A stretch of 18,470 bases of DNA from a virus, in the UHGV virus genome UHGV-1652597; one strand, written 5' to 3'. The notes below the pieces were generated by a model. It was not told the origin of the DNA. It searched no databases and was given only the letters and a program-made list of their open reading frames with translations. Positions 68 through 18,440 of this stretch are shown one piece after another. The stretch's first letter is position 1; the number at the start of each line of letters is the position of its first letter. A program made the translations under genes and the position numbers.

Positions 68-127
68 GGGGCGGGTCAAATCTCTGCGGCCTGACGTCTT
101 CCGGACTGCCCGCCCCATCGTTTTTTT
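68..127 (+). terminator. Terminator-like inverted repeat (GGGGCGGG ... CCCGCCCC) followed by a T7 run, upstream of terS; alternatively part of the packaging (cos) region
   Basis: Perfect 8-bp inverted repeat at 68-75 and 109-116 separated by about 33 nt, then ATCG and seven Ts at 121-127. The loop is long for a canonical intrinsic terminator, hence low confidence. Confidence 0.3.
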
Positions 128-166
128 ATACCCGCGAAAAATGAAATTTAACCAGGAGTGCCGCAT

Positions 167-661
167 ATGGCTGGAACGGCGGGGCGTTCCGGGCGTCGCC
201 CCAAGCCAACGGCGCGCAAGGCGCTGGCCGGAAACCCCGGCAAGCGAGCCCTGAACAAAGATGAACCTGTTTTTACGCCCATCAAAGGTGTTGAGCCACC
301 GGAGTGGTTCGCTGAAGAAGATCTCCCTCTCGCCACGATCATGTGGCAACTGACAACCAAAGAACTCTGCGGTCAGGGCCTGTTGTGCGTGACTGACCTG
401 GCGGTACTTGAGCGGTGGTGCGTGGCCTATGAGTTCTGGCGACGTGCCGTGAAAAATATTGCCAGCCAGGGCAACACCATCACCGGTGCAATGGGCGGTA
501 TGGTCAAAAACCCGGAGCTGACCGCCAAAAAAGAACAGGAGTCCGAGATGAGCAGCACGGGGGCAATGCTCGGACTCGACCCCAGCAGCCGCCAGCGTCT
601 GATTGGCCTGGCGGGGCAGAAGAAAGCCACTAACCCGTTTCTGAAAATCATCGAATCATGA
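167..661 (+). CDS. terS: Phage terminase small subunit, P27 family
   Basis: Track ORF 158..661; N-terminus [33 protein letters not shown] is typical of P27-family small terminases. AGGAG at 154-158 sits 8 nt before ATG 167, so ATG 167 is preferred over GTG 158. Position is immediately upstream of the large terminase. Confidence 0.8.
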
Positions 662-698
662 GCCGGAAATCTTACCCCAACGTAAATGCTGCCAATTT

Positions 699-2345
699 GT
701 GATGCAGGCCTGCCAGCGCCATCTTGATGACCTGATGGCGGAAAAAAGTAAGTCGTTTCGTTACCGCTTCGACAAGGACCTGGCTGAACGGGCCGCCAAA
801 TTTATTCAGCTGTTGCCGCACACCAAGGGTGAGTGGGCATTCAAGAGGATGCCCATCACGCTGGAGCCGTGGCAGCTCTTTGTGATCTGCTGCGCGTTTG
901 GCTGGGTCAATAAAGGCTCCCGGCTGCGCCGCTTCCGTGAGGTGTATACCGAAATCCCCCGTAAGAACGGCAAATCGGCAATCTCTGCCGGTGTCGCCCT
1001 GTATTGTTTTGCCTGTGATAACGAGTTTGGCGCGGAAGTGTATTCCGGTGCCACGACAGAGAAACAGGCGTGGGAAGTCTTTCGCCCGGCGCGACTGATG
1101 TGTAAACGCACACCCATGCTGACGGAAGCGTTCGGGATTGAGGTTAACGCCTCAAACATGAACCGTCCGGAGGATGGCGCGCGGTTTGAACCGCTGATCG
1201 GTAACCCCGGTGATGGATCATCACCCCACTGTGCGGTGGTGGATGAATATCACGAGCACGCCACCGATGCGCTTTACACCACGATGCTTACCGGGATGGG
1301 GGCGCGACGTCAGCCACTGATGTGGGCCATTACTACTGCCGGGTACAACATTGAGGGGCCGTGCTACGACAAGCGGCGGGAAGTCATCGAGATGCTCAAC
1401 GGCTCGGTGCCCAACGATGAACTGTTCGGGATCATCTATACCGTTGATGAAGGTGACGACTGGACCGACCCGCAGGTGCTGGAAAAAGCCAATCCAAATA
1501 TTGGCGTGTCGGTTTATCGCGAATTTTTGTTAAGTCAGCAGCAGCGTGCGAAAAATAACGCCCGTCTGGCAAACGTCTTTAAAACAAAACACCTCAATAT
1601 CTGGGTGTCGGCGCGTTCGGCGTATTTCAACCTGGTGAGCTGGCAGAGCTGCGAGGATAAATCACTGACCCTTGAGCAGTTTGAGGGGCAGCCGTGCATT
1701 CTGGCCTTTGACCTGGCGCGTAAGCTGGATATGAACAGTATGGCGCGACTTTATACCCGCGAGATTGACGGTAAAACGCATTACTACAGTGTGGCTCCGC
1801 GCTTCTGGGTACCGTATGACACGGTGTACAGCGTCGAGAAAAATGAAGATCGCCGGACAGCCGAGCGCTTTCAGAAATGGGTGGAAATGGGCGTTCTGAC
1901 CGTTACCGATGGTGCGGAGGTGGATTATCGCTACATCCTCGAGGAGGCCAAAGCGGCGAACAAAATCAGCCCGGTCAGTGAGTCACCCATCGACCCCTTC
2001 GGGGCGACCGGGCTGTCGCATGACCTTGCGGATGAAGACCTGAACCCCATCACCATCATTCAGAACTACACCAACATGTCCGACCCGATGAAAGAGCTGG
2101 AAGCGGCAATTGAATCGGGGCGTTTTCATCATGACGGCAATCCCATCATGACCTGGTGTATCGGCAACGTGGTCGGCAAAACCATTCCGGGTAACGATGA
2201 TGTGGTGAAGCCCGTCAAGGAGCAGGCGGAAAACAAAATTGATGGTGCAGTTGCGCTGATTATGGCGGTTGGCAGAGCCATGCTGTACGAGAAAGAAGAC
2301 ACGCTGTCTGATCACATTGAGTCCTACGGGATCCGCTCGCTTTAA
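699..2345 (+). CDS. terL: Phage terminase large subunit (ATPase/nuclease)
   Basis: 548-aa ORF directly after terS; Walker A-like motif PRKNGKS near residue 90; acidic motifs (VVDEYHEH) consistent with terminase ATPase; size and position. Start is GTG 699 or ATG 702; an in-frame stop at 642-644 precludes a longer N-terminus. Confidence 0.9.
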
Positions 2346-2356
2346 CTGAGGTAATT

Positions 2357-2539
2357 ATGATCATGCTGATTCTCGCGCCTCTGGTGGGCGTGCTGGGTGC
2401 GCTTTTGCTGGCGTATGGTGCCTGGCTGATTTATCCCCCGGCGGGGTTTGTTGTTGCCGGGGCGCTGTGCCTGTTCTGGTCGTGGCTGGTGGCGCGATAT
2501 CTCGACCGTACACAGCCGTCTGTCGGCGGAGGTAAATAG
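2357..2539 (+). CDS. Small hypothetical membrane protein (two predicted transmembrane helices)
   Basis: 60-aa ORF with two hydrophobic stretches ([23 protein letters not shown] and [16 protein letters not shown]); GAGG at 2348-2351 is 5 nt upstream of ATG 2357; stop overlaps the portal GTG start. No family recognised. Confidence 0.5.
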
Positions 2540-3780
2540 TGTTCTTTTCGGGATTATTTCAACGAAAAAGTGACGCACCGGTGACCACGCCAGCAGAGCT
2601 GGCGGATGCTATCGGGCTGTCATATGACACCTATACCGGAAAGCAGATCAGCAGCCAGCGGGCCATGCGACTGACGGCGGTTTTTTCCTGCGTCAGGGTG
2701 CTGGCGGAGTCGGTCGGGATGTTGCCCTGCAACCTGTATCACCTGAACGGCAGCCTGAAACAGAGAGCCACCGGCGAACGTCTGCATAAGCTGATCTCCA
2801 CGCATCCCAATGGCTATATGACGCCGCAGGAGTTCTGGGAGCTGGTGGTCACCTGTCTGTGCCTGCGGGGAAACTTTTACGCCTACAAAGTGAAAGCATT
2901 TGGCGAAGTGGCTGAACTGCTGCCCGTCGACCCAGGTTGTGTGGTACCGAAGCTTAACAGTAGCTGGGAACCGGTTTACCAGGTCACATTCCCGGACGGC
3001 TCCACGGATGTACTGAGCCAGGAAGATATCTGGCATGTGCGCACGCTGACGCTGGACGGTCTGGTGGGACTGAATCCCATCGCCTATGCCCGCGAGGCAA
3101 TATCGCTGGCAGCTGCGACCGAAGAGCACGGGGCCAGACTGTTCAGCAATGGTGCGGTGACGTCCGGTGTGTTGCGTACAGAGCAGACGCTGTCGGATCA
3201 GGCTTATGAGCGTCTGAAGAAAGATTTTGAGGAGCGTCACACCGGGCTTGGTAATGCTCACCGCCCGATGATCCTTGAGATGGGGCTGGACTGGAAGTCG
3301 ATGGCGCTGAACGCCGAGGACAGCCAGTTCCTGGAAACCCGCAAGTTTCAGCTTGAAGAAATCTGTCGTCTGTTCCGTGTGCCATTGCACATGGTGCAGA
3401 ACACCGATCGCGCCACCTTCAACAATATCGAAGAACTGGGGCTGGGATTTATCAACTATTCACTGGTGCCGTATCTGACCCGCATTGAGCAGCGGATCAA
3501 CACCGGACTGGTACGAAAAAGTAAGCAGGGCGTTTATTACGCCAAATTTAACGCCGGGGCGTTACTGCGCGGGGATATGAAGTCCCGTTTTGAAGCCTAC
3601 GCCACCGGGATTAACTGGGGAATTTACTCTCCCAATGACTGCCGCGACCTGGAAGATATGAATCCGCGTCCCGGTGGGGATGTCTATCTCACACCGATGA
3701 ACATGACCACGAAACCCTCCGATGGCAGTAAAGCCGGTAAGCAGAAGGATAACGCCAATGCAGACGAAACAACGTCTTGA
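2539..3780 (+). CDS. Phage portal protein, HK97 family
   Basis: 413 aa; N-terminal region RLTAVFSCVRVLAESVGMLPCNLY resembles the conserved HK97-family portal N-terminus; located between terminase and prohead protease. GTG start at 2539 overlaps the preceding stop. Confidence 0.9.
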   Translation: MFFSGLFQRKSDAPVTTPAELADAIGLSYDTYTGKQISSQRAMRLTAVFSCVRVLAESVGMLPCNLYHLNGSLKQRATGERLHKLISTHPNGYMTPQEFWELVVTCLCLRGNFYAYKVKAFGEVAELLPVDPGCVVPKLNSSWEPVYQVTFPDGSTDVLSQEDIWHVRTLTLDGLVGLNPIAYAREAISLAAATEEHGARLFSNGAVTSGVLRTEQTLSDQAYERLKKDFEERHTGLGNAHRPMILEMGLDWKSMALNAEDSQFLETRKFQLEEICRLFRVPLHMVQNTDRATFNNIEELGLGFINYSLVPYLTRIEQRINTGLVRKSKQGVYYAKFNAGALLRGDMKSRFEAYATGINWGIYSPNDCRDLEDMNPRPGGDVYLTPMNMTTKPSDGSKAGKQKDNANADETTS

Positions 3781-4408
3781 TGTACCGCTGAGTCTGAAAT
3801 CTGTCAGTGACTCCGGTGAGTTTGAAGGGTATGGCTCCGTCTTTGGTGTAAAGGACAGCCACGATGATGTGGTGATGTCCGGGGCATTTGCTGCTTCCCT
3901 GCGGGCGTGGAGTGACAGAAAAGCGTTACCTGCGCTGCTCTGGCAGCACCGCATGGATGAACCCATCGGTGTTTACACCGAAATGAAGGAAGACGATGTC
4001 GGGCTTTACGTCAGGGGGCGGTTGCTCATTGATGATGATCCCCTCGCAAAACGCGCACATGCACACATGAAGGCCGGTTCGTTAACCGGCCTTTCTATTG
4101 GGTACGTCCTGAAAGACTGGGAATACGACCGGAGCAAAGAAGCCTTTCTGTTGAAAGAAATCGACCTCTGGGAAGTCAGTCTGGTGACGTTTCCGTCTAA
4201 CGACGAGGCGCGGATCAGCGACGTCAAGAACGCGCTGGCCCGCGGGGAAATCCCCGAACAGAAAAAAATCGAAAGAGTCCTGCGTGATGTCGGACTCTCC
4301 CGTACCCAGGCCAAAGCATTCATGGCCGGGGGCTATGGCGCACTGTCCCTGCGCGACGCTGAGTATGTGGGCTCTGCACTGAATGCACTGAAAAATCTGA
4401 ACTTCTAA
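3758..4408 (+). CDS. Prohead maturation protease, HK97 family
   Basis: Motif FEGYGSVFGVKDSHDDVVMSGAF matches the HK97-family prohead protease N-terminal signature. The track ORF starts at 3722, but ATG 3758 has an AAGGA Shine-Dalgarno about 8 nt upstream and is preferred. Overlaps the portal 3' end. Confidence 0.85.
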   Translation: MQTKQRLDVPLSLKSVSDSGEFEGYGSVFGVKDSHDDVVMSGAFAASLRAWSDRKALPALLWQHRMDEPIGVYTEMKEDDVGLYVRGRLLIDDDPLAKRAHAHMKAGSLTGLSIGYVLKDWEYDRSKEAFLLKEIDLWEVSLVTFPSNDEARISDVKNALARGEIPEQKKIERVLRDVGLSRTQAKAFMAGGYGALSLRDAEYVGSALNALKNLNF

Positions 4409-4422
4409 TCAGGAGAAATACG

Positions 4423-5628
4423 ATGGCGGTTGATATTAAAGATGTCGAACAGGTCGCGCAGGAGCTGCAGCAGAAGTTTGACGACTTCAAAGCAAAGAAC
4501 GACAAGCGCGTGGATGCGATTGAGCAGGAAAAAGGCAAGCTTGCCGGGCAGGTGGAAACCCTGAACGGGAAACTCAGCGAGCTGGAAAATCTCAAAAGCG
4601 ACCTTGAAAAAGAGCTGCTTGAGCTGAAACGTCCGGCAGGTGGAGCGCAAAATAAACTGGCCACCGAGCATAAAGAGGCGTTTGTGGGCTTTCTACGTAA
4701 AGGCCGTGAAGACGGTCTGCGCGATCTGGAGCGTAAGGCATTGCAGGTGGGTACCGATGAAGACGGTGGCTACGCCGTGCCGGAAGAACTGGATCGCAAC
4801 ATTCTTAACCTGCTGAAAGATGAAGTGGTGATGCGTCAGGAAGCCACGGTGATCACCGTTGGCGGTTCCGACTACAAAAAACTGGTGAATCTGGGCGGTA
4901 CGGCTTCCGGATGGGTGGGGGAAACGGATACGCGATCCCAGACTGCCACCTCCAGACTGGAGCTGATTGAACCTCTCATGGGGGAAATCTACGGCAACCC
5001 GCAGGCTACCCAGAAAATGCTGGACGATGCCTTCTTCAACGTGGAGGCCTGGATTAACAGCGAGCTGGCAACCGAATTTGCCGAACAGGAAGAAATTGCC
5101 TTTACCTCAGGCGATGGCACCAAGAAGCCGAAAGGGTTCCTGGCGTATGAATCCACTGATGAAACCGACAAGGTCCGGGCGTTCGGCAAACTTCAGCATA
5201 TTGTATCCGGCGAAGCGACCGCGGTGACCGCAGACGCCATTATCAAACTGATTTACACGCTGCGTAAGGCACACCGCACTGGCGCGAAGTTCATGATGAA
5301 CAACAACAGCCTGTTTGCCATCCGTCTGCTGAAAGACACCGAGGGTAACTATCTGTGGCGTCCGGGGCTGGAACTGGGGCAGCCGTCCTCTCTGGCGGGT
5401 TACGGTATCGCTGAAAACGAACAGATGCCGGATATCGCCGCTGATGCGAAAGCCATTGCATTTGGTAACTTCAAACGGGGTTACACCATCGTTGACCGTA
5501 TCGGCACCCGCATTCTGCGTGACCCGTACACCAATAAACCGTTTGTCGGTTTTTATACCACCAAGCGCACCGGCGGGATGCTGGTCGATTCGCAGGCCAT
5601 CAAACTGCTGAAGATTGCAGCGGCGTAA
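4423..5628 (+). CDS. Major capsid protein, HK97 family, with N-terminal coiled-coil (delta/scaffolding-like) domain
   Basis: 401 aa; N-terminal about 100 residues are highly charged and heptad-like (EQVAQELQQKFDDFKAKNDKRVDAIEQEKGKLAGQVETLNGKLSELENLKSDLEKELLELK), followed by a body typical of HK97-fold capsid proteins; AGGAG Shine-Dalgarno before ATG; follows the protease. Confidence 0.9.
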   Translation: MAVDIKDVEQVAQELQQKFDDFKAKNDKRVDAIEQEKGKLAGQVETLNGKLSELENLKSDLEKELLELKRPAGGAQNKLATEHKEAFVGFLRKGREDGLRDLERKALQVGTDEDGGYAVPEELDRNILNLLKDEVVMRQEATVITVGGSDYKKLVNLGGTASGWVGETDTRSQTATSRLELIEPLMGEIYGNPQATQKMLDDAFFNVEAWINSELATEFAEQEEIAFTSGDGTKKPKGFLAYESTDETDKVRAFGKLQHIVSGEATAVTADAIIKLIYTLRKAHRTGAKFMMNNNSLFAIRLLKDTEGNYLWRPGLELGQPSSLAGYGIAENEQMPDIAADAKAIAFGNFKRGYTIVDRIGTRILRDPYTNKPFVGFYTTKRTGGMLVDSQAIKLLKIAAA

Positions 5629-5634
5629 TCACTC

Positions 5635-5659
5635 AGGGGGGCGGAACCGCGCCCCCTGT
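5635..5659 (+). terminator. GC-rich hairpin immediately downstream of the major capsid gene (possible partial terminator or RNA-stabilising stem-loop)
   Basis: CAGGGGG (5635-5641) pairs with CCCCCTG (5653-5659), with further internal GC pairs around a GAAC loop; followed by TGTTCT, which is only weakly T-rich. Confidence 0.35.
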
Positions 5660-5677
5660 TCTGACGGGTGAAGAATC

Positions 5678-5878
5678 ATGATCCTGAAACAAGATCTGAA
5701 ATGGTCACCGGACGGTATGCGTGTTGAGGTCATTCGGGCCGGTGAGTATGACGACGGGGCGCTTCCTGCCCGGGTGCAGGAGATTGCACTTCAGGCCGGG
5801 TTAGCAGAGCGCGGAACCAGTGCAAAAAGCAGTAAAGCGGCAAAAGAGAAAAAAGCCACGACCAGTAAAGAGGGCTGA
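5678..5878 (+). CDS. Hypothetical small protein with Lys/Ser/Thr-rich C-terminal tail
   Basis: 66-aa ORF between the capsid and head-tail connector genes, same strand and tightly packed; no family recognised. Confidence 0.4.
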   Translation: MILKQDLKWSPDGMRVEVIRAGEYDDGALPARVQEIALQAGLAERGTSAKSSKAAKEKKATTSKEG

Positions 5879-5880
5879 GT

Positions 5881-6204
5881 ATGCTTCTGACAATGGAAGA
5901 GATTAAAGCCCAACTCCGGCTGGATGAGGATTTCGATGCTGATGACCGCCATCTGCAACTGCTGGCCTGTGCGGCGCAAAAGCGGACGGAAACGTATCTG
6001 AACCGGAAGCTCTATGCACCGGATGAAACCATTCCGGAGAGCGATCCGGACGGGCTGCACCTGCCGGATGATATTCGTCTGGGGATGCTGATGCTTATCA
6101 GCCATTTTTACGAAAACCGCTCGTCGGTTACGGAAGTGGAGAAACTCGACATGCCGCAGAGTTTTGGCTGGCTTGTCGGCCCGTACAGGTACTTTCCGCA
6201 ATGA
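5881..6204 (+). CDS. Head-tail connector protein (gp6-like)
   Basis: N-terminus MEEIKAQLRLDEDFDADDRHLQLLACAAQKRTETYLNRKL matches the characteristic pattern of gp6-like head-tail connector proteins; position right after the capsid gene. Confidence 0.75.
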   Translation: MLLTMEEIKAQLRLDEDFDADDRHLQLLACAAQKRTETYLNRKLYAPDETIPESDPDGLHLPDDIRLGMLMLISHFYENRSSVTEVEKLDMPQSFGWLVGPYRYFPQ

Positions 6205-6611
6205 AAATTCGTCAGGCGCAGACCAGCGCAACCTACATTCTGCCGGACCCCGGTGAACTGAATAAACACGTCCTGATCCGCCTGCGGGTGGATATGCCCG
6301 CGGATAACTTTGGCGTGGAGCCTCAATACCCGGTTACGTTCCGGACATGGGCGAAGGTTATCCAGACCAGTGCCACCACCTGGCAGGAAACCGCGCAGAC
6401 CGGGGACGCCATCACCCATTACATCACCATTCGTTACCGCCGGGGGATCACCGCTGATTATGAGGTGGTCTGCGGTGACAGTGTGTACCGGGTGAAACGT
6501 CAGCGTGATCTGAACGGGGCGCGGCGCTTTCTGCTGCTGGAGTGTACGGAGCTGGGCGAATGTAGGCAGAGTCACGGAGGCAGCAATGGCGACTCCCTTT
6601 TTTCACGTTGA
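6201..6611 (+). CDS. Head closure / head-tail joining protein
   Basis: 136 aa; ATGA overlap with the connector gene; internal segments (ITIRYRRGIT, RRFLLLECTEL) resemble head-tail joining (head closure) family proteins; conserved position. Confidence 0.6.
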   Translation: MKIRQAQTSATYILPDPGELNKHVLIRLRVDMPADNFGVEPQYPVTFRTWAKVIQTSATTWQETAQTGDAITHYITIRYRRGITADYEVVCGDSVYRVKRQRDLNGARRFLLLECTELGECRQSHGGSNGDSLFSR

Positions 6612-7092
6612 TGTTCAGCAGCCCGCCGAGATGCGCTTTAACCGCGCCCGTGTCCGGCGGGCGTTTGTCACGATTGGGCAGCGTCATATGCGTGATGCCC
6701 GTCGGCTGGTGATGCGCCGTGCGCGGTCGGCACCGGGTGAAAACCCCGGTTATCAGACCGGACGCCTGGCTCGTTCGATTGGTTATATGGTGCCGAGAGC
6801 CAGTAAAAAGCGAGCCGGTTTTATGACACGCATTGCCCCTAACCAGCGCAACGGGAAGGGGAACCGGATGATCTCTGGTGACTTCTATCCGGCGTTTCTG
6901 TTTTTTGGTGTCCGGGGAGGAGCAAAACGTCGTCGTAGTCATCATCGTGGTGCATCCGGTGGCAGCGGCTGGCGACTGGCTCCACGTAATAACTTCATGG
7001 TGGAAACTCTTGAAAAGAACCGCAGCTGGACACGCTATTTTCTGGCGCGGGAATTGCGTAAATCACTGAAGCCGGAGCGACGACACAGATGA
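6586..7092 (+). CDS. Putative neck / tail-completion protein (HK97 gp10-like)
   Basis: 168 aa, basic; segment PGYQTGRLARSIGY resembles the D/TG-x-L-x-x-S-I motif I associate with HK97 gp10-family tail components; position between head-closure and tail genes. Confidence 0.45.
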   Translation: MATPFFHVDVQQPAEMRFNRARVRRAFVTIGQRHMRDARRLVMRRARSAPGENPGYQTGRLARSIGYMVPRASKKRAGFMTRIAPNQRNGKGNRMISGDFYPAFLFFGVRGGAKRRRSHHRGASGGSGWRLAPRNNFMVETLEKNRSWTRYFLARELRKSLKPERRHR

Positions 7093-7649
7093 AACTGACG
7101 CCTGTTATTGCTGCGCTGCGTGCCCGCTGCCCGTATTTTGAAAACCGGGTGGCAGGCGCGGCACAGTTCAAAAATCTGCCGGAGGTCGGAAAGCTGAGAC
7201 TCCCGGCGGCGTATGTGGTACCGGGTGATGACTCTCCGGGAGAAAACAAAAGCCAGATCGACTACTGGCAGGAGCTGAAAGAGGGCTTCTCCGTGGTTGT
7301 CATACTGAGTAACGGGCGTGATGAGCGCGGTCAGTTTGCCTCGTATGATGTGGTGGACGATGTCCGGCAGATGCTCTTTAAGGCCCTGCTGGGCTGGAAC
7401 CCGGAAGCGTGCGGTAACCCGATTACCTATGACGGCGGCACGCTGCTGGATCTGAATCGTCATGAGCTGATTTATCAGTTCGATTTTTCGGTCATCAGCG
7501 AGCTGACTGAAGACGATACCCGCCAGCAGGATGATCTGAACAGTCTGGATGAACTGCAAACGCTGGCGATTGATGTTGATTATCTCGAGCCCGGTAACGG
7601 GCCTGACGGCGATATCGAACATCACACCGAAATAACCCTTCCTTCCTGA
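7089..7649 (+). CDS. Hypothetical phage neck/tail protein (positional equivalent of Mu-like gp37)
   Basis: 186 aa; ATGA overlap with the upstream gene; acidic C-terminus; call is based on synteny (two genes upstream of the tail sheath in Mu-like tail modules), not a recognised motif. Confidence 0.4.
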   Translation: MKLTPVIAALRARCPYFENRVAGAAQFKNLPEVGKLRLPAAYVVPGDDSPGENKSQIDYWQELKEGFSVVVILSNGRDERGQFASYDVVDDVRQMLFKALLGWNPEACGNPITYDGGTLLDLNRHELIYQFDFSVISELTEDDTRQQDDLNSLDELQTLAIDVDYLEPGNGPDGDIEHHTEITLPS

Positions 7650-7657
7650 GGATCCTC

Positions 7658-7825
7658 ATGTTTGTCAAACCTGTTAAAGGGCGGTCAGTTCCTGACCCTG
7701 CCCGCGGCGACCTTTTGCCCGCCGAAGGGCGAAATGTTGACGAGAACAACTACTGGCTGCGCCGTGAAGTAGCGGGTGATATCCGGCGCGTGAATAAAAA
7801 GGTGAATACCGATGACGAGCTTTAA
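7658..7825 (+). CDS. Small conserved protein preceding the tail sheath (Mu-like gp38 / DUF2635-like); not in the supplied ORF track
   Basis: Hand-translated 55-codon ORF ATG 7658 to TAA 7823-7825: MFVKPVKGRSVPDPARGDLLPAEGRNVDENNYWLRREVAGDIRRVNKKVNTDDEL. It overlaps the sheath start by 14 nt and resembles the small proteins found upstream of sheath genes in Mu-like tail clusters. Confidence 0.45.
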   Translation: MFVKPVKGRSVPDPARGDLLPAEGRNVDENNYWLRREVAGDIRRVNKKVNTDDEL

Positions 7826-9661: not shown

Positions 9662-9981
9662 TTGAGCTTGTACTTAAAAAACCGATCATCGCCCACAAAG
9701 AAACACTGCATGTGCTGGAAATACGTGAGCCTACGTATGACGAGATTGAGGCGCTGGGGTTCCCTTTCTCTGTTTCACCTGATGGTGGTATGAAAATGGA
9801 CAGTCAGGTAGCGCTGAAATATATCCCGCTTCTGGCCGGGATCCCGCGCTCGTCTGCAGCGCAGATGACGAAGCTGGATATTTTCAAGGCAGGCATGATT
9901 GTAATGCGTTTTTTTACCGGCTTGGAGACGGAAGAGACCTCCGGAAGCGATTCTACAATGTCGCGTGGTTCTGGAAATTAA
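9658..9981 (+). CDS. Tail assembly chaperone (gpG / P2 gpE-like)
   Basis: 107 aa, acidic; located between the tube and tape measure genes; contains an in-frame T7 run at 9909-9915 (candidate slippery site). Confidence 0.7.
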   Translation: MIELVLKKPIIAHKETLHVLEIREPTYDEIEALGFPFSVSPDGGMKMDSQVALKYIPLLAGIPRSSAAQMTKLDIFKAGMIVMRFFTGLETEETSGSDSTMSRGSGN

Positions 9982-10073
9982 ACCCCCTTGAACTTCGCCG
10001 GACGGCTATTTCCCACTTTGCTGATCTGGAGGCAGAGGCCGTCCGTATAAATGAGGAGATGAAGCATGGCTGA
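9658..10073 (+). CDS. Putative -1 frameshift product of the tail assembly chaperone (G-T / E-E' type fusion); slip at T_TTT_TTT 9909-9915
   Basis: Heptamer T TTT TTT lies in the zero frame (codons TTT 9910-9912 and TTT 9913-9915). The -1 frame is open from 9783 to TGA 10071-10073, giving about 52 extra residues (YRLGDGRDLRKRFYNVAWFWKLNPLELRRTAISHFADLEAEAVRINEEMKHG) that end just inside the tape measure start. Confidence 0.45.
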
Positions 10074-11973
10074 TAATTTTCAGCTGAAAGCCATCATCAC
10101 CGCCGTTGACAGGCTGTCCGGCCCGCTTAAAGGTATGCAGCGTCAGCTTAAGGGGTTTCAGAAAGAAGTCTCCAGCCTTGCTCTGGGCGCTGCCGGGGCG
10201 GGTACTGCAATAATGGGGGCACTGGCACTCCCTGTAAAATCAGCCATCACCCTTGAATCGAAGATGGCTGATGTCCGCAAAGTGGTAGACGGTCTGGATA
10301 CGCCGGATGCGTTTAAGGCCATGACGGAGCAGGTACGCGCTTTGTCTACTGAGCTTCCCATGTCTGCAGACGGGATCGCGGAAATTGTGGCGGCTGGCGG
10401 TCAGGCCGGGATTGCACGTGATGAACTGATGCAGTTTGCCACTGATGCGGTGAAGATGGGCGTGGCCTTTGATACCACGGCTGAAGAGTCCGGGCAGATG
10501 ATGGCCCAGTGGCGTACTGCGTTTAATATGACGCAGGATGAAGTGGCCGGGCTGGCTGACAAAATCAACTACCTTGGTAATACCGGCCCGGCGAATGCGA
10601 AGAAAATCTCCGATATTGTTACGCGTATTGGTCCTTTAGGTGGTGTTGCAGGTGTGGCTTCCGGCGAAATCGCGGCAATGGGGGCAACCATTGCCGGGAT
10701 GGGCGTGGAGTCAGAAATTGCCGCCACAGGGATCAAGAACTTCATGCTTTCCCTGACCGCGGGAAATTCCGCGACAAAATCGCAGAAACAGGCATTACGT
10801 TTTCTGCGGATCAATCCGAAGAAATTAGCTGCTGATATGCAGAAAGATGCCCGGGGAACCATGCTGTCTGTACTGGATGCGATGGCTAAAGTGCCCAAAG
10901 AAAAACAGGCAGCTGTGCTGAATGCCCTGTTCGGGAAAGAGTCTCTGGGCGCGATAGCACCTCTGCTGACTAACCTTGATTTGTTGCGTACCAACTTCAG
11001 GCGGGTTGCGGATTCCCAGCAGTATGGCAGTTCGATGCAGAAGGAATATGCTTCGAGGGCAGCGACGACGGAAAACCAGCTTTTACTTCTGCAAAATCAA
11101 CTTGATGCCATTTCTTCCACGCTGGGGGAAACGTTTCTTCCTGAGGTTAATGATGGTCTTGAAGCGGTAAAACCGCTCCTTGAGGAAGTGAGAACGTTTG
11201 TCCGTGAAAACCCGGAGCTCGTTAAGACCATTGCTAAAATCGGTCTGGCCTTACTGACGGTGGGAGCCGCTGCAGGCTCTTTGTCCAGAATTATGAAAGT
11301 TCTCGGCGGTGTGATGAATATGACGCCTGCTAAGGGGCTGATTGCTCTTCTGGTTGGTGGCGCTTACCTCATTATTGATAACTGGGAAACCGTAGGTCCT
11401 GTCATAAAAAAAGTCTGGCACGTGGTGGATGAAACGGCGCAGGCGATGGGGGGATGGGAAACTGTTCTGAAAGCGATTGCCCTGTTTATGGCAACCAAAT
11501 GGGTTGCTGACGTTACCAAATCCATTACCGCAGTGACCAGAGAGATGCGTACGCTGGGGAAGGTATCGGCAGAAACGGGATTGATGGGGAAAGGCCGCGG
11601 CTTTATCGGGAAGGCCGGGGTATATGGTTTTCTGGGAACCCTGATGTATGAGCCGGTTAAAGATACTCTGGAAAGTGTTGTTCCTGAAGATACGGTTAAC
11701 TGGCTGGATAATAAAGGGCTGTTTCTGGCTTCAGACTGGACGCCTTTTTTTGATCGTAAAGAGTACGAGCAGTATCAGGCCAGCCTGAGTCAGTACAAAC
11801 CCAATGTTCCGCTGCTGAATCCATCTTCTTCCATGACACAGCACAGCGAGCTGAAAGTCACGTTCGAGAATGCTCCGCCAGGTATGAAGATAATTGATGT
11901 ACCGGGCAAAGCCGATCCCCTGATGAAAATCACGCACGATGTGGGGTATTCCCCTTTTCGTTTTCCACGATAA
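10066..11973 (+). CDS. Tail tape measure protein
   Basis: 635 aa; Ala/Gly-rich N-terminal helical region and hydrophobic central segments; GAGGAG Shine-Dalgarno 7 nt upstream of ATG; positioned after the chaperone as in all long-tailed phages. Confidence 0.9.
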   Translation: MADNFQLKAIITAVDRLSGPLKGMQRQLKGFQKEVSSLALGAAGAGTAIMGALALPVKSAITLESKMADVRKVVDGLDTPDAFKAMTEQVRALSTELPMSADGIAEIVAAGGQAGIARDELMQFATDAVKMGVAFDTTAEESGQMMAQWRTAFNMTQDEVAGLADKINYLGNTGPANAKKISDIVTRIGPLGGVAGVASGEIAAMGATIAGMGVESEIAATGIKNFMLSLTAGNSATKSQKQALRFLRINPKKLAADMQKDARGTMLSVLDAMAKVPKEKQAAVLNALFGKESLGAIAPLLTNLDLLRTNFRRVADSQQYGSSMQKEYASRAATTENQLLLLQNQLDAISSTLGETFLPEVNDGLEAVKPLLEEVRTFVRENPELVKTIAKIGLALLTVGAAAGSLSRIMKVLGGVMNMTPAKGLIALLVGGAYLIIDNWETVGPVIKKVWHVVDETAQAMGGWETVLKAIALFMATKWVADVTKSITAVTREMRTLGKVSAETGLMGKGRGFIGKAGVYGFLGTLMYEPVKDTLESVVPEDTVNWLDNKGLFLASDWTPFFDRKEYEQYQASLSQYKPNVPLLNPSSSMTQHSELKVTFENAPPGMKIIDVPGKADPLMKITHDVGYSPFRFPR

Positions 11974-11997
11974 CGCAGTCCTTTTTGAGGTCAGTCT

Positions 11998-13374
11998 ATG
12001 GATTTATCCTCATTTCCCACCCGACCTTCATTACTTTCGTCGTCTTCAGGCTGGCGTGACAGACTTCAGGACGCGTCATTTCGCGGCGTGCCGTTTAAGG
12101 TTGAAGAAGAAAGTGCGGGAACCGGTCGCCGTGTGGAAACACATGAATACCCGAACCGCGACAAACCCTATACCGAAGACCTGGGGAAAATCACTTTTCG
12201 CCCGTCCATCACGGCTTATGTGGTGGGAGATGACTGCTTTGACCAGCGCGATCGCCTGATTGAAGCGCTGAATAAACCCGGTCCCGGCACGCTTGTCCAC
12301 CCGACATATGGTGAGCTGAAAGTCTGTGTTGACGGGGAAGTTCGGGTCAGCACATCGAAAAGTGAAGGGCGTATTGTCCGCTTTGACCTGAAGTTTGTCG
12401 AAGCAGGAGAACTCTCTTACCCCACATCAGGTGCGGCGACGGCGCAGACGCTGATGTCATCCTGTTCTGCACTGGATGACTGCATCAGTGACAGCTTCAG
12501 CGGTTTCAGTATCGATGGTGTGGCGGATTTCGTGCAGAACGACGTTATCGGTAATGCCAGCATAATGCTGGGGTATGTTTCTGATGCGATGAAAGTGGTG
12601 GATTCTGCCGTATCGGATGCCGCCAGGCTGTTGCAGGGGGATATCTCGGTACTTCTGCCGCCGCCATCGTCAGGCAAAAATTTCGTTGAGCAGGTGCAGA
12701 AAATGTGGCGTACCGGGAAACGCCTTTATGGTAACGCCAGCGACCTGGTCACCATGATCAAAACGCTTTCCGGTGTCAGCCTCGGCAGCGATCTGCAACC
12801 GCGCGGCGTCTGGAAAACGGACAGTAAAACCACCGCCACGGCGACGCAGCAGCGTAACGTGGTTGCCAGCACCCTTCGTACGACCGCAATCAGCGAAGCG
12901 GCGTATGCCGTCACCCGATTGCCTGCGCCAATAACTTCCGCGGTGATGCAGAATTCCGCAGTGGGGCAGGCAACAACACCCGCGCAGAGCACTGGCTGGC
13001 CTTCCGTCACGCATCCGGCACTGAACAATGCACCGGCGGTGAAAAACACGGTTGACCTGCCGACGTGGGAAGAACTGACTGACATTCGCGACACACTGAA
13101 TACGGCAATTGATAAGGAGTTGTCCCGTACAACCAGTGATGCGCTGTTTCTGGCGCTGCGCCGGGTGAAAGCAGATCTGAATGCGGATATCAACACGCGC
13201 CTTGAACAGTCTGCACGGATCATTCAGCGCACACCGGATGAGGTTTTACCCGCGCTGGTGCTGGCGGCGACCTGGTTTGATAACGCGGCGCGTGACGCGG
13301 ACATTATCCGGCGTAATGCCATTACGCATCCCGGCTTTGTGCCGGTGATCCCTCTGAAGGTGCCAGTGCAATGA
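11998..13374 (+). CDS. DNA circulation protein (Mu gpN-like) / baseplate hub component
   Basis: N-terminal segment WRDRLQDASFRGVPFKVEEESAGTGRRVETHEYPNRDKPYTEDLG matches the conserved N-terminus of Mu N-family proteins; follows the tape measure. Confidence 0.85.
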   Translation: MDLSSFPTRPSLLSSSSGWRDRLQDASFRGVPFKVEEESAGTGRRVETHEYPNRDKPYTEDLGKITFRPSITAYVVGDDCFDQRDRLIEALNKPGPGTLVHPTYGELKVCVDGEVRVSTSKSEGRIVRFDLKFVEAGELSYPTSGAATAQTLMSSCSALDDCISDSFSGFSIDGVADFVQNDVIGNASIMLGYVSDAMKVVDSAVSDAARLLQGDISVLLPPPSSGKNFVEQVQKMWRTGKRLYGNASDLVTMIKTLSGVSLGSDLQPRGVWKTDSKTTATATQQRNVVASTLRTTAISEAAYAVTRLPAPITSAVMQNSAVGQATTPAQSTGWPSVTHPALNNAPAVKNTVDLPTWEELTDIRDTLNTAIDKELSRTTSDALFLALRRVKADLNADINTRLEQSARIIQRTPDEVLPALVLAATWFDNAARDADIIRRNAITHPGFVPVIPLKVPVQ

Positions 13375-14450
13375 ACGACAATGTCACGCTACGGGTAAAT
13401 GGCCGGGAGTGGAATGGCTGGACATCGGTGCGCATCGGTGCCGGTATTGAACGGCTGGCGCGGGATTTCAGTGTGGAGATCACTCGCCAGTGGCCGGGAG
13501 ATGAGGGTATCACCACGCTTCAGCCGCGCATTAAAAACGGTTCAAAAGTGGAAGTGCTGATTGGTGATGAGCTGGTGATTACCGGCTGGGTGGAGGCGAC
13601 TCCCGTTCGTTACGATGCCCGTTCGGTCAGTACCGGTATTGCCGGACGTAGTCTGACGGCTGACCTGATTGACTGTGCAGCCGAACCGACACAGTTTAAC
13701 GGACGCTCGCTGGTGCAGATTGCGCAGGCGCTTGCTGCGCCTTTCGGCATTGAGGTGGTGAACAGCGGTGCGCCGTCGGGTGTTATTCCTGATGTTCAGC
13801 CTGATCACGGTGAAACGGTGATTGAGGTAATCAACAAAATACTCGGTCAGCAGCAGGCGCTGGCTTACGACGACCCGCACGGCAGGCTGGTGATTGGCGG
13901 TATTGGCTCAACGCGGGCACATACCGCGCTGGTACTTGGGGAAAACATCCTTTCCTGTGATACGGAGAAGAGTATCCGGGAGCGGTTTTCTGTTTACCAG
14001 GTGGCGGGGCAGCGTGCCGGAAACGACGATGATTTCGGTGAGGCCACCACCACCGCGCTGCGGGCCCGCACAGAGGACGCATTTATTGCCCGTTACCGTC
14101 CGATGTATATCAGGCAGACAGGGCAGGCCACGGGGGCAGGTTGTATTGCGCGTGCTGACTTTGAAGCCCGACAACGGGCGGCGCGGACGGATGAAACCAC
14201 CTATGTGGTGCAGGGCTGGCGACAGGGTAACGGTACGCTGTGGCAGCCCAACCAGCGGGTGATTGTCTTCGATCCGGTCTGTGGTTTCGACAATACCGAA
14301 CTGCTTGTCTCGGAAGTCACGTTTACTCAGGACCAGAACGGCACTCTGACGGAAATCCGTGTCGGCCCACCTGATGCTTATCTGCCTGAACCCGAAGCCC
14401 CCGGCGCGCGGAAAAAGAAAAAAGCCAGAGTACAGGAGGACCCGTTCTGA
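13371..14450 (+). CDS. Tail/baseplate protein (Mu gpP-like, late control D-like family)
   Basis: 359 aa; ATGA overlap with the upstream gene; position after the N-like gene as in Mu-like tails; N-terminal VTLRVNGREWNGW pattern. Confidence 0.7.
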   Translation: MNDNVTLRVNGREWNGWTSVRIGAGIERLARDFSVEITRQWPGDEGITTLQPRIKNGSKVEVLIGDELVITGWVEATPVRYDARSVSTGIAGRSLTADLIDCAAEPTQFNGRSLVQIAQALAAPFGIEVVNSGAPSGVIPDVQPDHGETVIEVINKILGQQQALAYDDPHGRLVIGGIGSTRAHTALVLGENILSCDTEKSIRERFSVYQVAGQRAGNDDDFGEATTTALRARTEDAFIARYRPMYIRQTGQATGAGCIARADFEARQRAARTDETTYVVQGWRQGNGTLWQPNQRVIVFDPVCGFDNTELLVSEVTFTQDQNGTLTEIRVGPPDAYLPEPEAPGARKKKKARVQEDPF

Positions 14451-14998
14451 TGAGGACGATTGAAGCCATGCAGCGACAACTTCTCGGCCTGATTGGGCGG
14501 GCAGTGGTGAAAAGCATCAGTGCCGCCACGAAATGTCAGACCGTGGATGTGTCCCTGATTGCCGGTGAACCCAAAGCCGGGGTTGAACATCTTGAACCCT
14601 ACGGTTTTACCGCAAGGGCAAACAGCGGTGCGGAAGCGGTGGTGTTGTTTCCGGATGGCGACCGTTCTCATGCGGTGGTTGTTACGGTGTCGGACCGGCG
14701 CTACCGCCTGAAAGGGCTGCAGACGGGTGAGGTGGCTGTCTATGACGATCAGGGGCAGTCTGTGACGCTGACCCGGGAGGGGATCGTGGTGGACGGTGCA
14801 GGTAAAACGATCACGTTTCGCAATGCACCTGAAGCACGTTTTGAAATGGACCTGGAAGTGACAGGACAGGTGAAAGACCTGTGCGACTCCGGCGGCACCA
14901 CCATGTCAGCGATGCGGCTTGCCTATAACGGGCATCGTCACAGAGAGAACGGTCAGGGCAGTAACACCGACAAACCGGATAAAGCGATGGAGGCATGA
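14450..14998 (+). CDS. Baseplate assembly protein V (central spike, gpV-like / Mu gp45-like)
   Basis: 182 aa; N-terminal region IGRAVVKSISAATKCQTVDVSLIAGEPKAGVEHLEPYGFTARANSGAEAVVLFPDGDRSHAVVV is typical of gpV spike OB-fold domains. Confidence 0.8.
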   Translation: MRTIEAMQRQLLGLIGRAVVKSISAATKCQTVDVSLIAGEPKAGVEHLEPYGFTARANSGAEAVVLFPDGDRSHAVVVTVSDRRYRLKGLQTGEVAVYDDQGQSVTLTREGIVVDGAGKTITFRNAPEARFEMDLEVTGQVKDLCDSGGTTMSAMRLAYNGHRHRENGQGSNTDKPDKAMEA

Positions 14999-15423
14999 TG
15001 GAACTGTGGCTGACGGTGAACGGTAAACGCACCTGCGCCAGCGCACCGCTGGATCCGCTGACCCGCTCCGTGGTGATTTCCCTGTTTACCTGGCGGCGGG
15101 CGGAGCCTGATGACAACGCCGACGTCCCGATGGGATGGTGGGGGGATACCTGGCCTGCGGTACAGAATGACCGTTACGGCTCCCGACTGTGGCTGCTTCA
15201 GCGCAGCAAACTGACCAATCAGCTGGTGCAGACGGTAAGGGGGTATATCCGCGAATGCCTGCAATGGATGATTGATGATGGCGTGGTGTCCCGTATTGAT
15301 CTGGATATCCGCCGCACCGGGATTAATGAACTGGGTAACAGTATCACTCTCTGGCGTCGTGACGGACCGGTAATGATTTCTTTTGATGATCTGTGGAGTG
15401 CGATAACGCATGGCGGACAGTGA
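14995..15423 (+). CDS. Baseplate protein, GP46 family (gpW-like)
   Basis: 142 aa; ATGA overlap; size and position between V-like and J-like genes match the Mu-like gp46 family. Confidence 0.7.
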   Translation: MMELWLTVNGKRTCASAPLDPLTRSVVISLFTWRRAEPDDNADVPMGWWGDTWPAVQNDRYGSRLWLLQRSKLTNQLVQTVRGYIRECLQWMIDDGVVSRIDLDIRRTGINELGNSITLWRRDGPVMISFDDLWSAITHGGQ

Positions 15424-16468
15424 ATTTCAGCGCCCGACGCTGGCAGAAAATATCAGTATGCTCCGTAACGATTTATTCGCCAGGCTGGACGTCAGCGACA
15501 CGCTCCGGCGCATGGATGAAGACGTGCGGGCAAAGGTGTATGCGGCGGCGCTGCATACGGTTTACGGGTACATCGATTATCTGGCAATGAACATGCTGCC
15601 TGACCTGTGCGATGAGTCCTGGCTGGCGCGACATGCTGCGATGAAACGGTGTCCGCGCAAGGGGGCCACGGCTGCCAGCGGGTATATGCGCTGGGAAGGT
15701 GTCAGCGATGGCCTGAAGGTGACTGCCGGGAGCGTGATTCAGCGCGATGACCTGGTTCAGTACACGGCAACTGCCGATGCAACCAGCTCCGGTGGTGTCC
15801 TGCGTGTGCCGATCGCCTGCTCAAATGCAGGCGCGGTCGGTAACACTGACGACGGTACGGCATTAATCCTGGTCACGCCGGTGAATGGTCTGCCGTCTTC
15901 CGGTGTGGCTGACACCCTGACAGGCGGATTTGATGCTGAAGATCTGGAAACGTGGCGCGCCCGCGTCATTGAGCGGTATTACTGGACGCCTCAGGGCGGG
16001 GCTGACGGGGACTATGTCGTCTGGGCTAAAGAAGTGCCCGGCATTACCCGCGCATGGACATACCGACACTGGATGGGAACGGGGACTGTCGGTGTGATGA
16101 TTGCCAGCAGTGACCTGATTAATCCCATTCCGGAAGAGTCAACGGAAACGTCGGCAAGACAACATATCGAGCCACTGGCCCCGGTGGCAGGCTCTGATTT
16201 GTATGTATTCAGGCCGGTGGCGCATAAAGTGGATTTTCATATCCGCGTGACGCCGGACACACCGGAAATACGGGCTGCCATCACCGCCGAGTTGCGTTCG
16301 TTCCTGCTGCGTGATGGTTATCCGCAGGGAGAACTGAAGGTGTCACGTATCAGTGAAGCGATTTCCGGTGCGAACGGGGAATACAGCCATCAGTTGCTTG
16401 CCCCGGCGGACAATATCTCCATTGCGAAAAATGAACTGGCGGTTCTGGGGACGATTTCATGGACGTGA
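15410..16468 (+). CDS. Baseplate J-like protein (Mu gp47-like)
   Basis: 352 aa; position and size typical of the baseplate J wedge protein; overlaps flanking genes. Confidence 0.85.
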
Positions 16469-17043
16469 CAAACGATGATTACATCCGTCTGTTGTCGGCA
16501 CTGTTGCCCCCTGGTCCGGCGTGGTCAGCCAGCGATCCGGCGATTGCCGGTGCAGCACCGTCATTAACCCGCGTTCATCAGCGTGCGGATGCCCTGATGC
16601 GGGAGCTGGATCCGCGCACCACCACTGAACTGATAAACCGCTGGGAGCGTCTGTGCGGTCTGCCGGATGAATGTATTCCGGCGGTAACGCAGACCCTTCG
16701 CCAGCGTCAGCAACGGCTGGATGCGAAGGTTAACCTGGCGGGCGGCATCAACGAGGATTTTTATCTTGCACAGCTTGCTGCCCTGGGCAGACCAGATGCC
16801 ACCATCACGCGATACGACAAAAGCACGTTCACCTGCTCATCGGCCTGTACTGACGCGGTGAATGCGCCGGAATGGCGGTATTACTGGCAGATCAACATGC
16901 CAGCCGACACCAACACCACCTGGATGACATGTGGCGATCCCTGTGATTCCGCACTGCGTATCTGGGGCGACACCGTTGTCGAGTGTGTGCTTAACAAACT
17001 CTGCCCGTCGCATACCTACATAATTTTTAAATATCCGGAGTAA
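16459..17043 (+). CDS. Tail protein, YmfQ / DUF2313 family (Mu gp48-like, P2 gpI-like)
   Basis: 194 aa; N-terminus [19 protein letters not shown] and segment [13 protein letters not shown] are characteristic of the YmfQ/gp48 family; precedes the tail fiber gene. Confidence 0.75.
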
Positions 17044-17046
17044 TCC

Positions 17047-17838
17047 ATGCATCGTATAGACACGAAAACCGCGCAGAAGGATAAGTTCGGCGCGGGTAAG
17101 AACGGTTTTACCCGTGGTAACCCCCAGACCGGCACACCTGCCACCGATCTGGATGATGACTACTTTGACATGTTGCAGGAGGAGCTTTGCAGCGTGGTGG
17201 AGGCCTCCGGTGCCAGCCTGGAGAAGGGGCGGCATGACCAGCTGCTTACCGCGCTTCGTGCGCTGCTGTTAAGCCGCAAGAATCCGTTTGGCGATATCAA
17301 ATCGGATGGCACGGTGAAAACGGCTCTCGAAAACCTTGGTTTGGGAGAAGGCTCTGCATTACCGGTTGGGGTGCCTGTTCCGTGGCCTTCAGCCACTCCG
17401 CCAACAGGCTGGCTGAAATGCAACGGTGCCGCTTTTTCTGCTGAAGAATACCCGGAACTGGCAAAGGCTTATCCGACAAATAAATTGCCTGATTTACGTG
17501 GTGAGTTTATTCGTGGCTGGGATGACGGGCGTGGTATTGATGCTGTACGTGCCTTGCTAAGTCTTCAGAATGGAGGAGTGGAATCACACACCCACCAAGG
17601 GCAGCTCTTCAGAGTTAGTGATTATCGTACAAAAGAAATACCAGCATCAGAAGTTATGGGAAGAGGATATATTGCAAGCCTGACGCCGGGTGCTGATAGC
17701 CCACTTGATTTTGATGATTATTCTGTATCTTCTAATCCAAATGGATATTTTGTCGGGAATCAGAGAACAACAGCATATGGGATAAATGAAACCCGTCCAC
17801 GGAATATTGCATTTAACTATATCGTGAGGGCTGCATAA
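17047..17838 (+). CDS. Tail fiber protein with C-terminal tail-collar-type domain
   Basis: 263 aa; N-terminus ([46 protein letters not shown]) resembles the conserved baseplate-attachment region of fibers; C-terminal part ([21 protein letters not shown] ... [12 protein letters not shown] ... ETRPRN) matches the tail-collar fold signature; followed by a tail fiber assembly gene. Confidence 0.8.
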
Positions 17839-18440
17839 TGGATAACGCTGTATTAAATAGCGAGTTTATTGCTACAAAGGCGGGGAATATTACCGTCTAT
17901 AACTATGATGGCGAAACACGGGAATATATTTCCACATCAACTGAATATCTTGCCGTTGGTGTCGGTATCCCTGCATATTCCTGTTTAGATGCCCCTGGCA
18001 CATACAAAGCTGGTTATGCAATCTGCCGATCTGTAGATTTTAACTCATGGGAATATGTGCCAGACCATCGCGGTGAAATCGTCTTTAGCACCGAAACAGG
18101 AGAATCAAAAGAAATCACAGTTTCGGGTGATTACCCTGATAATACAACCACTATCGCCCCTTTATCTCCATACGATAAATGGGATGGTGAGAAATGGGTG
18201 ACCGATACTGAGGCACAGCATAGCGCCGCAGTAGACGCGGCAGAAGCACAGCGCCAGTCACTGATTGATGCTGCAATGGCTTCCATCAGTCTGATTCAGC
18301 TGAAATTAAAGGCCGGACGGAAACTGACGCAGGCAGAAACAACCCAGCTTAACGCTGTGCTGGATTACATTGACGCGGTGACGGCAACAGATACCAGCAC
18401 CGCGCCGAATGTCATCTGGCCTGAACTGCCGGAGGCGTAG
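17838..18440 (+). CDS. Tail fiber assembly protein (Tfa chaperone)
   Basis: 200 aa; TAATG overlap with the fiber gene; C-terminal region (KWDGEKWVTDTEAQHSAAVDAAEAQRQSLIDAAMASISLIQLKL ... DTSTAPNVIWPELPEA) is characteristic of enterobacterial Tfa proteins. Confidence 0.9.
   Translation: MDNAVLNSEFIATKAGNITVYNYDGETREYISTSTEYLAVGVGIPAYSCLDAPGTYKAGYAICRSVDFNSWEYVPDHRGEIVFSTETGESKEITVSGDYPDNTTTIAPLSPYDKWDGEKWVTDTEAQHSAAVDAAEAQRQSLIDAAMASISLIQLKLKAGRKLTQAETTQLNAVLDYIDAVTATDTSTAPNVIWPELPEA

Follow-up and report, generated by a model that had tools for sequence, protein, structure and literature searches.

SfI, SfII, SfIV and SfV are contractile-tailed myoviruses whose head proteins belong to the HK97 family, and electron microscopy has been reported for all four (PMC3851460). 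In papers of 2002 and 2003, SfV was described as pairing an HK97 head with a Mu-type tail (Allison et al. 2003, cited in PMC4542187; see also PMC3851460), and a later paper states outright that 'SfV harbors a Mu-like tail' (PMC4542187). The e14 element of Escherichia coli K-12 is a defective relative of the SfV/SfI family, the morphogenesis genes of SfI sharing 94-100% protein identity with those of e14, and the 10-nt cohesive end of SfI has been determined experimentally (PMC3636060). Here, we compare with these phages a stretch of 18,470 nucleotides from the virus genome UHGV-1652597 (hereafter the window, with positions counted from its first letter), which carries on the + strand, from 158 to 18440, 24 co-oriented and tightly packed late genes, nearly all of which could be named by Pfam and PHROG searches. 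The window very probably constitutes the late operon, coding for the virion, of a temperate E. coli or Shigella phage of the SfV/SfIV/e14 type, with an HK97-family head and a Mu-type contractile tail. This arrangement is already known, and what we describe is the ordinary virion block of a prophage family, that of SfV, SfIV and e14, which is very common in E. coli and Shigella. A preliminary description made from the same letters, which cited SfV as a hybrid of this kind and judged that the arrangement was probably not new, was right on this point, since SfV, SfI, SfII and SfIV are the top phage matches and the hybrid dates back to the descriptions of 2002/2003. The genes that it lists were likewise all confirmed, on the + strand and at the positions given.

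When phage records were searched by megablast, SfIV covered 92% of the window at 97.5% identity and vB_EcoM-720R4 93% at 98.1%, followed by SfII and SfI (about 80% covered each) and SfV (60%), with more distant matches in Salmonella ST64B (59% covered at 82.5%) and E. coli phiP27 (50% at 78%). Some match was found in 3,075 of the 5,426 complete E. coli genomes, and in 805 of the 5,426 the match extends to at least 80% of the window. The best of these is a prophage of strain D1 (98.8% identity), flanked upstream by lambdoid lysis genes and an HNH gene and downstream by inverted fibre genes and the pinE invertase gene. Matches as close as those to SfIV and D1 cannot be put down to chance. RefSeq gene names in this prophage include ymfR, ymfQ, tfaE and pinE, names that originated with the e14 element of K-12. 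Although e14 is of the same family, in K-12 it is a remnant, whereas the gene set of the window is complete but for the truncation at the start of terL.

One metagenome contig, ENA ERZ1744522 NODE_890 (23,851 bp), corresponds to the window coordinate for coordinate, and the window is probably the initial 18.5 kb of that contig or a copy almost identical to it. Such assemblies do yield chimeric joins, in which case the head and the tail would come from two phages wrongly joined in a contig. However, the same colinear order is found in the isolated and sequenced phages SfIV, SfII, SfI, SfV and vB_EcoM-720R4, the arrangement is carried by the 805 complete E. coli genomes mentioned above, and identity to E. 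coli D1 is unbroken over 6200-7100 (100% in each 200-base window). An assembly chimera is refuted by these observations and retains next to no probability.

The closest known systems are SfIV, SfII, SfI, vB_EcoM-720R4 and E. coli prophages such as that of D1. SfIV (NC_022749) and the window form one colinear high-scoring segment pair over window 100-17350, from cos to the constant region of the fibre gene, at 96-98% DNA identity. They share the same gene set, including the same portal-protease-capsid allele and the same tape-measure allele (about 99% DNA identity for the tape measure), but differ in the allele of a 168-residue neck gene, in the fibre tip and Tfa, and at the start of terL, which is intact in SfIV. 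In SfV (NC_003444), the architecture, gene order and cos region are also the same, and protein identity reaches 93-100% for terS, for terL, for the genes from Hc1 to tube and for those from N to gp48 (98% for terS and SfV orf1). By contrast, the portal and capsid proteins share only 28% and 25% identity with those of SfV, the protease has no tblastn match, and Ad1 (62%), the chaperone (44%) and the tape measure (24%) are divergent as well, while two small genes of the window have no counterpart in SfV.

Packaging and head genes

The genes and sites from the left end of the window to the last clear HK97-type gene are the following.

1-41, + strand: 3' end of an HNH endonuclease gene (stop TGA at 39-41)
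107-116, unstranded: probable cos sequence TGCCCGCCCC, flanked by an inverted repeat, GGGGCGGG (68-75) and CCCGCCCC (109-116)
158-661, + strand (annotated ATG at 167): terS, P27 family (PF05119, E 4e-21; phrog_83)
658-702, + strand: what is left of the normal terL start, namely 14 codons from ATG 658 to TGA 700-702, after a 46-bp deletion
699/702-2345, + strand: terL, an open reading frame of 547 residues (PF03354 and PF20441; phrog_9)
2357-2539, + strand: predicted YmfR-like small membrane protein of 60 residues, moron-type, between terL and the portal gene (phrog_502)
2539-3780, + strand: portal, HK97 type (PF04860, E 4e-108)
3722-4408, likely start 3758, + strand: S78 prohead serine protease (PF04586, E 1e-31)
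4423-5628, + strand: major capsid protein, HK97 family (PF05065, E 4e-79, residues 115-398)
5634-5658, + strand: tentative GC-rich hairpin directly after the capsid gene, its fold not better than that of shuffled sequence (z -0.7)
5678-5878, + strand: protein of 66 residues (phrog_1020, function unknown)
5881-6204, + strand: gp6-like head-tail adaptor Ad1 (PF05135, the family of HK97 gp6; phrog_40)
6201-6611, + strand: HK97 gp7-like head closure protein Hc1 (PF05521, E 6e-20, the family of HK97 gp7; phrog_25)

TerL, portal, protease, capsid protein, Ad1 and Hc1 have Pfam family sets identical to those of HK97 (NC_002167) gp2-gp7, and their genes come in the same order. The nearest solved relative of the portal is the HK97 portal itself (8cez, gp3; E 9e-52), to which it is 32% identical, and the protease shares 36% identity with HK97 gp4. 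Conversely, the head families of Mu, i.e. Portal_Mu (PF06074), Mu F (PF04233), Mu-like_Pro (PF10123) and Mu-like_gpT (PF10124), are matched strongly by the Mu proteins and by none of the window proteins, and Mu head genes have no tblastn match to the window. The assignment of these genes to the HK97 lineage in the preliminary description is therefore borne out, and neither the Pfam nor the tblastn comparison groups them with Mu-like heads. Nevertheless, protein identity to HK97 in the head does not exceed 26-36%, and HK97 differs in having a lambda-like, non-contractile tail.

By tblastn, 42% of the length of the capsid protein aligns with HK97 gp5, at 26% identity. Among solved structures, it is closest to the HK97-family capsid of the Rhodobacter gene transfer agent (6tb9, E 5e-76), HK97 gp5 not being found at E 0.001 in the same search of the PDB. 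The conserved domain of the window protein begins at residue 115 (of 401), which leaves some 114 residues as an N-terminal extension; in HK97 gp5, a protein cross-linked through K169 and N356, it begins at residue 113 of 385. The capsid gene directly follows the protease gene and, as in HK97, there is no separate scaffold gene. By analogy, the N-terminal extension would act as a delta-like scaffold. The start of the protease gene was placed at 3758 from the gene calls of D1 and of ENA metagenome contigs. The hairpin that follows the capsid gene occupies the position of putative terminators annotated in SfV and HK97; promoter and terminator scans of the window showed no enrichment over shuffled sequence, and an Rfam scan of the window gave 0 matches.

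The two genes that SfV lacks have relatives elsewhere in the family. The YmfR-like gene is annotated ymfR in D1 and is also found in Salmonella phage 118970_sal3 and in E. coli prophages, and the 66-residue protein shares 80% identity with its counterpart in 118970_sal3. In the 77-kb record of the latter phage (NC_031940), an attR is annotated at 16604-16636 between terL and the portal gene, and the portal gene call is split; this record may be a composite of prophages, or there may be an insertion between terL and the portal gene.

Upstream of terS, the decamer TGCCCGCCCC at 107-116 is an exact match to the 10-nt SfI cohesive end, and 34 bases before it the complement of the decamer, GGGGCGGG, completes an inverted repeat, although the repeat does not fold better than shuffled sequence. 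The linear records of SfV and SfIV start at window 100. On this evidence, 107-116 is probably the cohesive-end site. The gene whose 3' end opens the window matches the HNH endonuclease gene of D1 (L006 5691-6041), and an HNH gene adjoins cos at the same position in HK97; in systems of the HK97 type, cleavage at cos is aided by HNH proteins of this sort. The small terminase subunit had been listed with the HK97-lineage head genes, and here only one half of the claim holds: membership of the P27 family is clear, but a link to HK97 gp1 is not seen, as gp1 matches no Pfam family and has no tblastn match to terS.

Contractile tail, neck and the head-tail junction

From the neck rightwards, the genes upstream of the fibre gene are the following.

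6586-7092, + strand: neck or tail-completion protein of 168 residues (phrog_879 only, no Pfam match)
7089-7649, + strand: tail terminator (PF23840)
7658-7825, + strand: DUF2635 protein, homologue of Mu gp38 (PF10948; 38% identity, E 2e-10)
7812-9305, + strand: contractile sheath, Mu L-like (three sheath Pfam domains; 36% identity to Mu L over 100% of length)
9305-9661, + strand: tail tube (PF10618, E 2e-33, the family of Mu M)
9658-9981, with a probable -1 frameshift to 10073, + strand: tail assembly chaperone (PF10109, also matched by Mu gp41)
10066-11973, + strand: tape measure (PF10145; phrog_28)
11998-13374, + strand: Mu N-like 'DNA circulation' or baseplate hub protein (PF07157; N-terminal part 42% identical to Mu N)
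13371-14450, + strand: baseplate hub, Mu P/gp44-like (GpP-like and Gp44-like Pfam domains; 35% identity to Mu P over 100% of length)
14450-14998, + strand: gp45-like (PF06890; 33% identity to Mu gp45)
14995-15423, + strand: gp46-like (PF07409; 41% identity to Mu gp46)
15410-16468, + strand: gp47-like (PF04865; 31% identity to Mu gp47)
16459-17043, + strand: gp48-like (PF10076; 30% identity to Mu gp48)

The order terminator, gp38, sheath, tube, chaperone, tape measure, N, P and gp45-48 is that of Mu (NC_000929), and eight of the proteins (gp38, L, N, P and gp45-48) have direct tblastn matches to Mu, at 30-42% identity and in Mu's order. Solved structures agree: in the PDB, the sheath is closest to that of Mu (a chain of entry 9khy, E 2e-78) and the P-like hub to MuSo2 3cdd and Mu gp44 1wru (E 2e-50). 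HK97 tail genes, on the other hand, have no tblastn match to the window except stf and tfa, so that in this comparison nothing else aligns the tail with that of a non-contractile-tail phage; the type of tail, and with it that of the particle, was read from the sheath, tube and baseplate genes. The Mu-like order proposed in the preliminary description is thus upheld by tblastn and Pfam for gp38, L, M, gp41, N, P and gp45-48, but not for gp36, for the family of the tape measure, or for the fibre and Tfa. The Mu genes for the head, transposition and pac-type packaging are absent from the window.

In the chaperone gene, a canonical slippery heptamer (T TTT TTT) is present at 9909-9915, and the -1 frame is open from there to a TGA at 10071-10073, which would give a product of 138 residues ending 5 bases past the start codon of the tape measure gene. 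A -1 frameshift is therefore probable on sequence grounds. Between the tape measure and the N-like gene, the window has a gap of 24 bases, where some relatives carry an extra small gene: in two of them (L011 and L012, 4443-4889) it encodes a minus-strand tRNA_anti-like OB-fold protein, and in others (L015 4397-4909; L003 9396-9908) a 170-residue protein of unknown function. This gap may be a moron insertion site.

Several points weigh against the identification of the window as an HK97-head/Mu-tail virion operon. This copy may not make normal terminase, given the 46-bp deletion at the 5' end of terL. The tape measure and Mu gp42 fall in different Pfam families (PF10145 and PF20155, respectively), which makes the former a positional analogue only. 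HK97 gp5 is a weak direct match to the capsid protein by tblastn and does not appear among its PDB matches.

The transition from head to tail takes place in the neck. The last clear HK97-type family is that of Hc1 (6201-6611) and the first direct similarity to Mu is that of the DUF2635 protein (7658-7825), with two genes between them, which would place the lineage boundary, as judged by homology, within about 6600-7650. The first of these two genes, at 6586-7092, had been called gp36-like. This identity was rejected: Mu gp36 belongs to PF07030/phrog_195 and the window protein to phrog_879, and hhalign gave a probability of 0.1% for the pair. Comparisons by hhalign with HK97 gp10 and Mu G were negative too, and neither phmmer and profile searches of PDB sequences nor a Foldseek search with the model of the protein returned anything. 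The protein weakly resembles tail-completion proteins of the HK97 gp10 type, and the window has no homologue of gp36.

The second gene fared better. The terminator has no sequence-level match to Mu gp37, from which it differs both in Pfam family (PF23840 versus PF08873) and in PHROG family. However, its AlphaFold model, which is of moderate quality (25 homologues, predicted local distance difference test score 70), has as its best PDB match 9khy_1, which is Mu gp37 (E 3e-7, template modelling score 0.58-0.61, over the full length). The model thus suggests that the terminator is gp37-like at the level of the fold, in line with the name it had been given.

Is the neck also the place where the two lineages were joined? 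DNA identity to SfV and SKA5 goes up from about 60% to 98% at about 6200, on the border of Ad1 and Hc1, while that to Salmonella phage 118970_sal3 goes down from 90% to about 62% at about 6250; in SfIV, identity drops to 52-84% (in 50-base windows) precisely over the 168-residue gene (about 6550-7100). With respect to SfV, there are further joints: the block from the portal gene to the 66-residue gene is replaced between about 2284 and 5880, the chaperone and tape measure are replaced between about 9686 and 12058, and another joint lies at 17350. The breakpoints at about 6200, 6250, 6550 and 7100 could be taken to mean that a siphovirus head and a myovirus tail came together only recently, in this very genome, through an exchange of modules at 6200-7100. 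However, SfV, SKA5, 118970_sal3 and SfIV, the partners of these exchanges, all have an HK97-type head and a Mu-type tail already. Because the partners share one architecture, the breakpoints are allele swaps rather than the original fusion. Moreover, no step in G+C or in G+C at third codon positions (GC3) is seen at 6200-7100, the head genes having a G+C content of 0.553 and a GC3 of 0.65 and the tail genes 0.559 and 0.60, and compositional deviations are limited to the chaperone and tape measure (0.49-0.52) and to the fibre tip and Tfa (GC3 about 0.44). Since, in addition, protein identity to HK97 and Mu is no more than 26-42%, which points to an old combination, the recent fusion was rejected as very improbable. 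The junction predicted at 6200-7100 therefore exists as a cluster of allele-exchange breakpoints, while the discontinuity in G+C or codon usage that was to accompany it does not. The picture that we favour is that of a head-tail combination that is old and fully ameliorated, and hybrid merely relative to the type phages HK97 and Mu, in which present-day mosaicism consists of gene-border swaps between alleles of one shared architecture.

The 5' end of terL

In alignments with SfV, SfIV, E. coli D1 and 118970_sal3, 46 bp are missing from the window just past the normal terL start (window 658-704), with CTGCCA microhomology at the edges of the deletion, and all four relatives keep the full 5' sequence. 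A private T-to-G change (ATT to ATG) creates an ATG at 702 that overlaps the upstream stop codon (TGATG). The resulting 547-residue TerL is without the first ~30 residues of the 577-residue TerL of the family; compared with HK97 gp2, to which it is 26% identical over residues 28-526, it keeps all the HK97-alignable sequence and both domains. A PRKNGKS sequence, which reads as a Walker A motif, is kept at residues 86-92.

Of the 1,123 complete E. coli records with a match, none reached 99% identity over the deletion junction (each of the 15 listed was split into two aligned pieces there), and exact-pattern scans of IMG/VR and of the GTDB representative genomes found none. An exact-protein look-up, however, retrieved an identical terL product from two separate ENA metagenome assemblies (ERZ1744522 and ERZ28663295). 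Position 695, at the deletion junction, is an A in the window and a G in both ENA metagenome contigs; it is the single mismatch to ERZ1744522 NODE_890 over window 1-5345.

A deletion that would destroy the normal start of terL could mean that this prophage is decaying and defective in packaging, or that it is turning into a tail-only or cryptic element like e14, which in K-12 provides a precedent for a defective relative (PMC3636060). It is in keeping with such a scenario that the deletion is private to this lineage, that the canonical reading frame ends after 14 codons and that the junction was not met at 99% identity in the E. coli records or by exact pattern in IMG/VR and the GTDB representatives. 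Yet the other 23 genes are full length when compared with SfIV and D1, the conserved part of TerL has been spared, the ATG overlapping the stop codon could allow re-initiation, and the variant has been seen in two separate assemblies, which together make decay possible but rather doubtful. We also entertain, tentatively, the idea that this is a rare terL allele that is alive, in which a TerL short of about 30 N-terminal residues would be made by termination-reinitiation and would still package DNA. If true, the N-terminal extension of SfV-type TerL, which is absent from HK97 TerL, would be dispensable.

Fibre cassette and significance for the family

At the right end of the window, the operon closes with the genes for the fibre and its chaperone.

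17047-17838, + strand: tail fibre (PF07484), with a constant N-terminal part to about 17350, then a variable collar and C-terminal part
17322-17347, unstranded: probable invertase crossover site CTCTCGAAAACCTTGGTTTGGGAGAA, inside the fibre gene, where similarity to SfV ends
17838-18440, + strand: Tfa (PF02413; 90% protein and 93% DNA identity to HK97 Tfa)
18412-18470, - strand: 3' end of an alternative inverted tfa' gene, by correspondence to D1 (L006 24467-24886, minus strand), running off the window

The N-terminal 41% of the fibre (about 100 residues) is 93% identical to the SfV fibre. Beyond it, similarity to HK97 takes over at the DNA level, with 94% identity to HK97 stf over window 17323-17543, and it is solely in the fibre tip and tfa (17323-17543 and 17889-18465; 93-94%), not in the head genes, that DNA-level similarity to HK97 is found. 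The fibre-tip cassette also has DNA matches of about 90% in P2-like and Klebsiella phages. The fibre and Tfa had been listed as part of the Mu-like tail order, but the Mu fibre and assembly proteins S and U have no tblastn match to the window, whose fibre tip and Tfa resemble HK97 stf/tfa and lambdoid and P2-like cassettes instead. The C-terminal part of the fibre and Tfa appear to be a promiscuous, horizontally mobile cassette.

The point at which similarity switches is marked by the crossover site. Its core, AAACCTTGGTTT, has its sole perfect match in the window here, and we take it to have the form of Hin/Gin/Pin-type crossover sites. A partner site, TTCTCCCAAACCAACGTTTATGAAAA, adjoins pinE in E. 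coli D1 (L006 25238-25263), past inverted tfa' and fibre-tip genes, and the homologous segment of phage SKA5 lies in the opposite orientation. Since the crossover site coincides with the similarity switch, its D1 partner lies by pinE and the segment is inverted in SKA5, 17322-17347 is probably the left end of an invertible host-range segment, within which the window ends. Like the fibre tip of Mu, which is controlled by the invertible G segment, that of the window would be under the control of inversion but, in the absence of sequence kinship to Mu S and U, only the control logic would be shared. The cargo beside the fibre/invertase end varies among prophage copies (L010-L012, about 12500-15500) and includes a GmrSD-type restriction enzyme, an AbiTii-domain protein and a LEM-3-like GIY-YIG nuclease, which gives this end of the prophage the look of a variable slot for defence genes.

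By homology with the systems discussed here, the operon would work as follows. The HNH endonuclease, P27-type TerS and TerL would cut at cos and package DNA through the HK97-type portal into a head made of an HK97-family capsid protein, which would bring its own N-terminal scaffold-like extension and be processed by the S78 protease. The Ad1 adaptor and the Hc1 head-closure protein would then seal the head, and the tail-completion protein and the terminator with its Mu gp37 fold would couple it to the Mu-type contractile tail. The latter would be built from the gp38-like protein, sheath, tube, frameshifting chaperone, tape measure, N/P hub and gp45-48 baseplate. Host range would be set by the fibre, whose tip and chaperone would sit within an invertible, horizontally mobile cassette.

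For the family, the joints in the neck show once more that the boundaries of phage mosaics fall at gene borders, between parts that need to fit each other, and here the adaptor travels with the head while the head-closure protein travels with the tail. The virion module itself is one of the commonest among E. coli prophages and carries little weight as a discovery. Its useful yield is a clean annotation, in which cos, the frameshift site of the chaperone, the invertase crossover site and the allele-swap joints of the neck are placed and the terL deletion is flagged.

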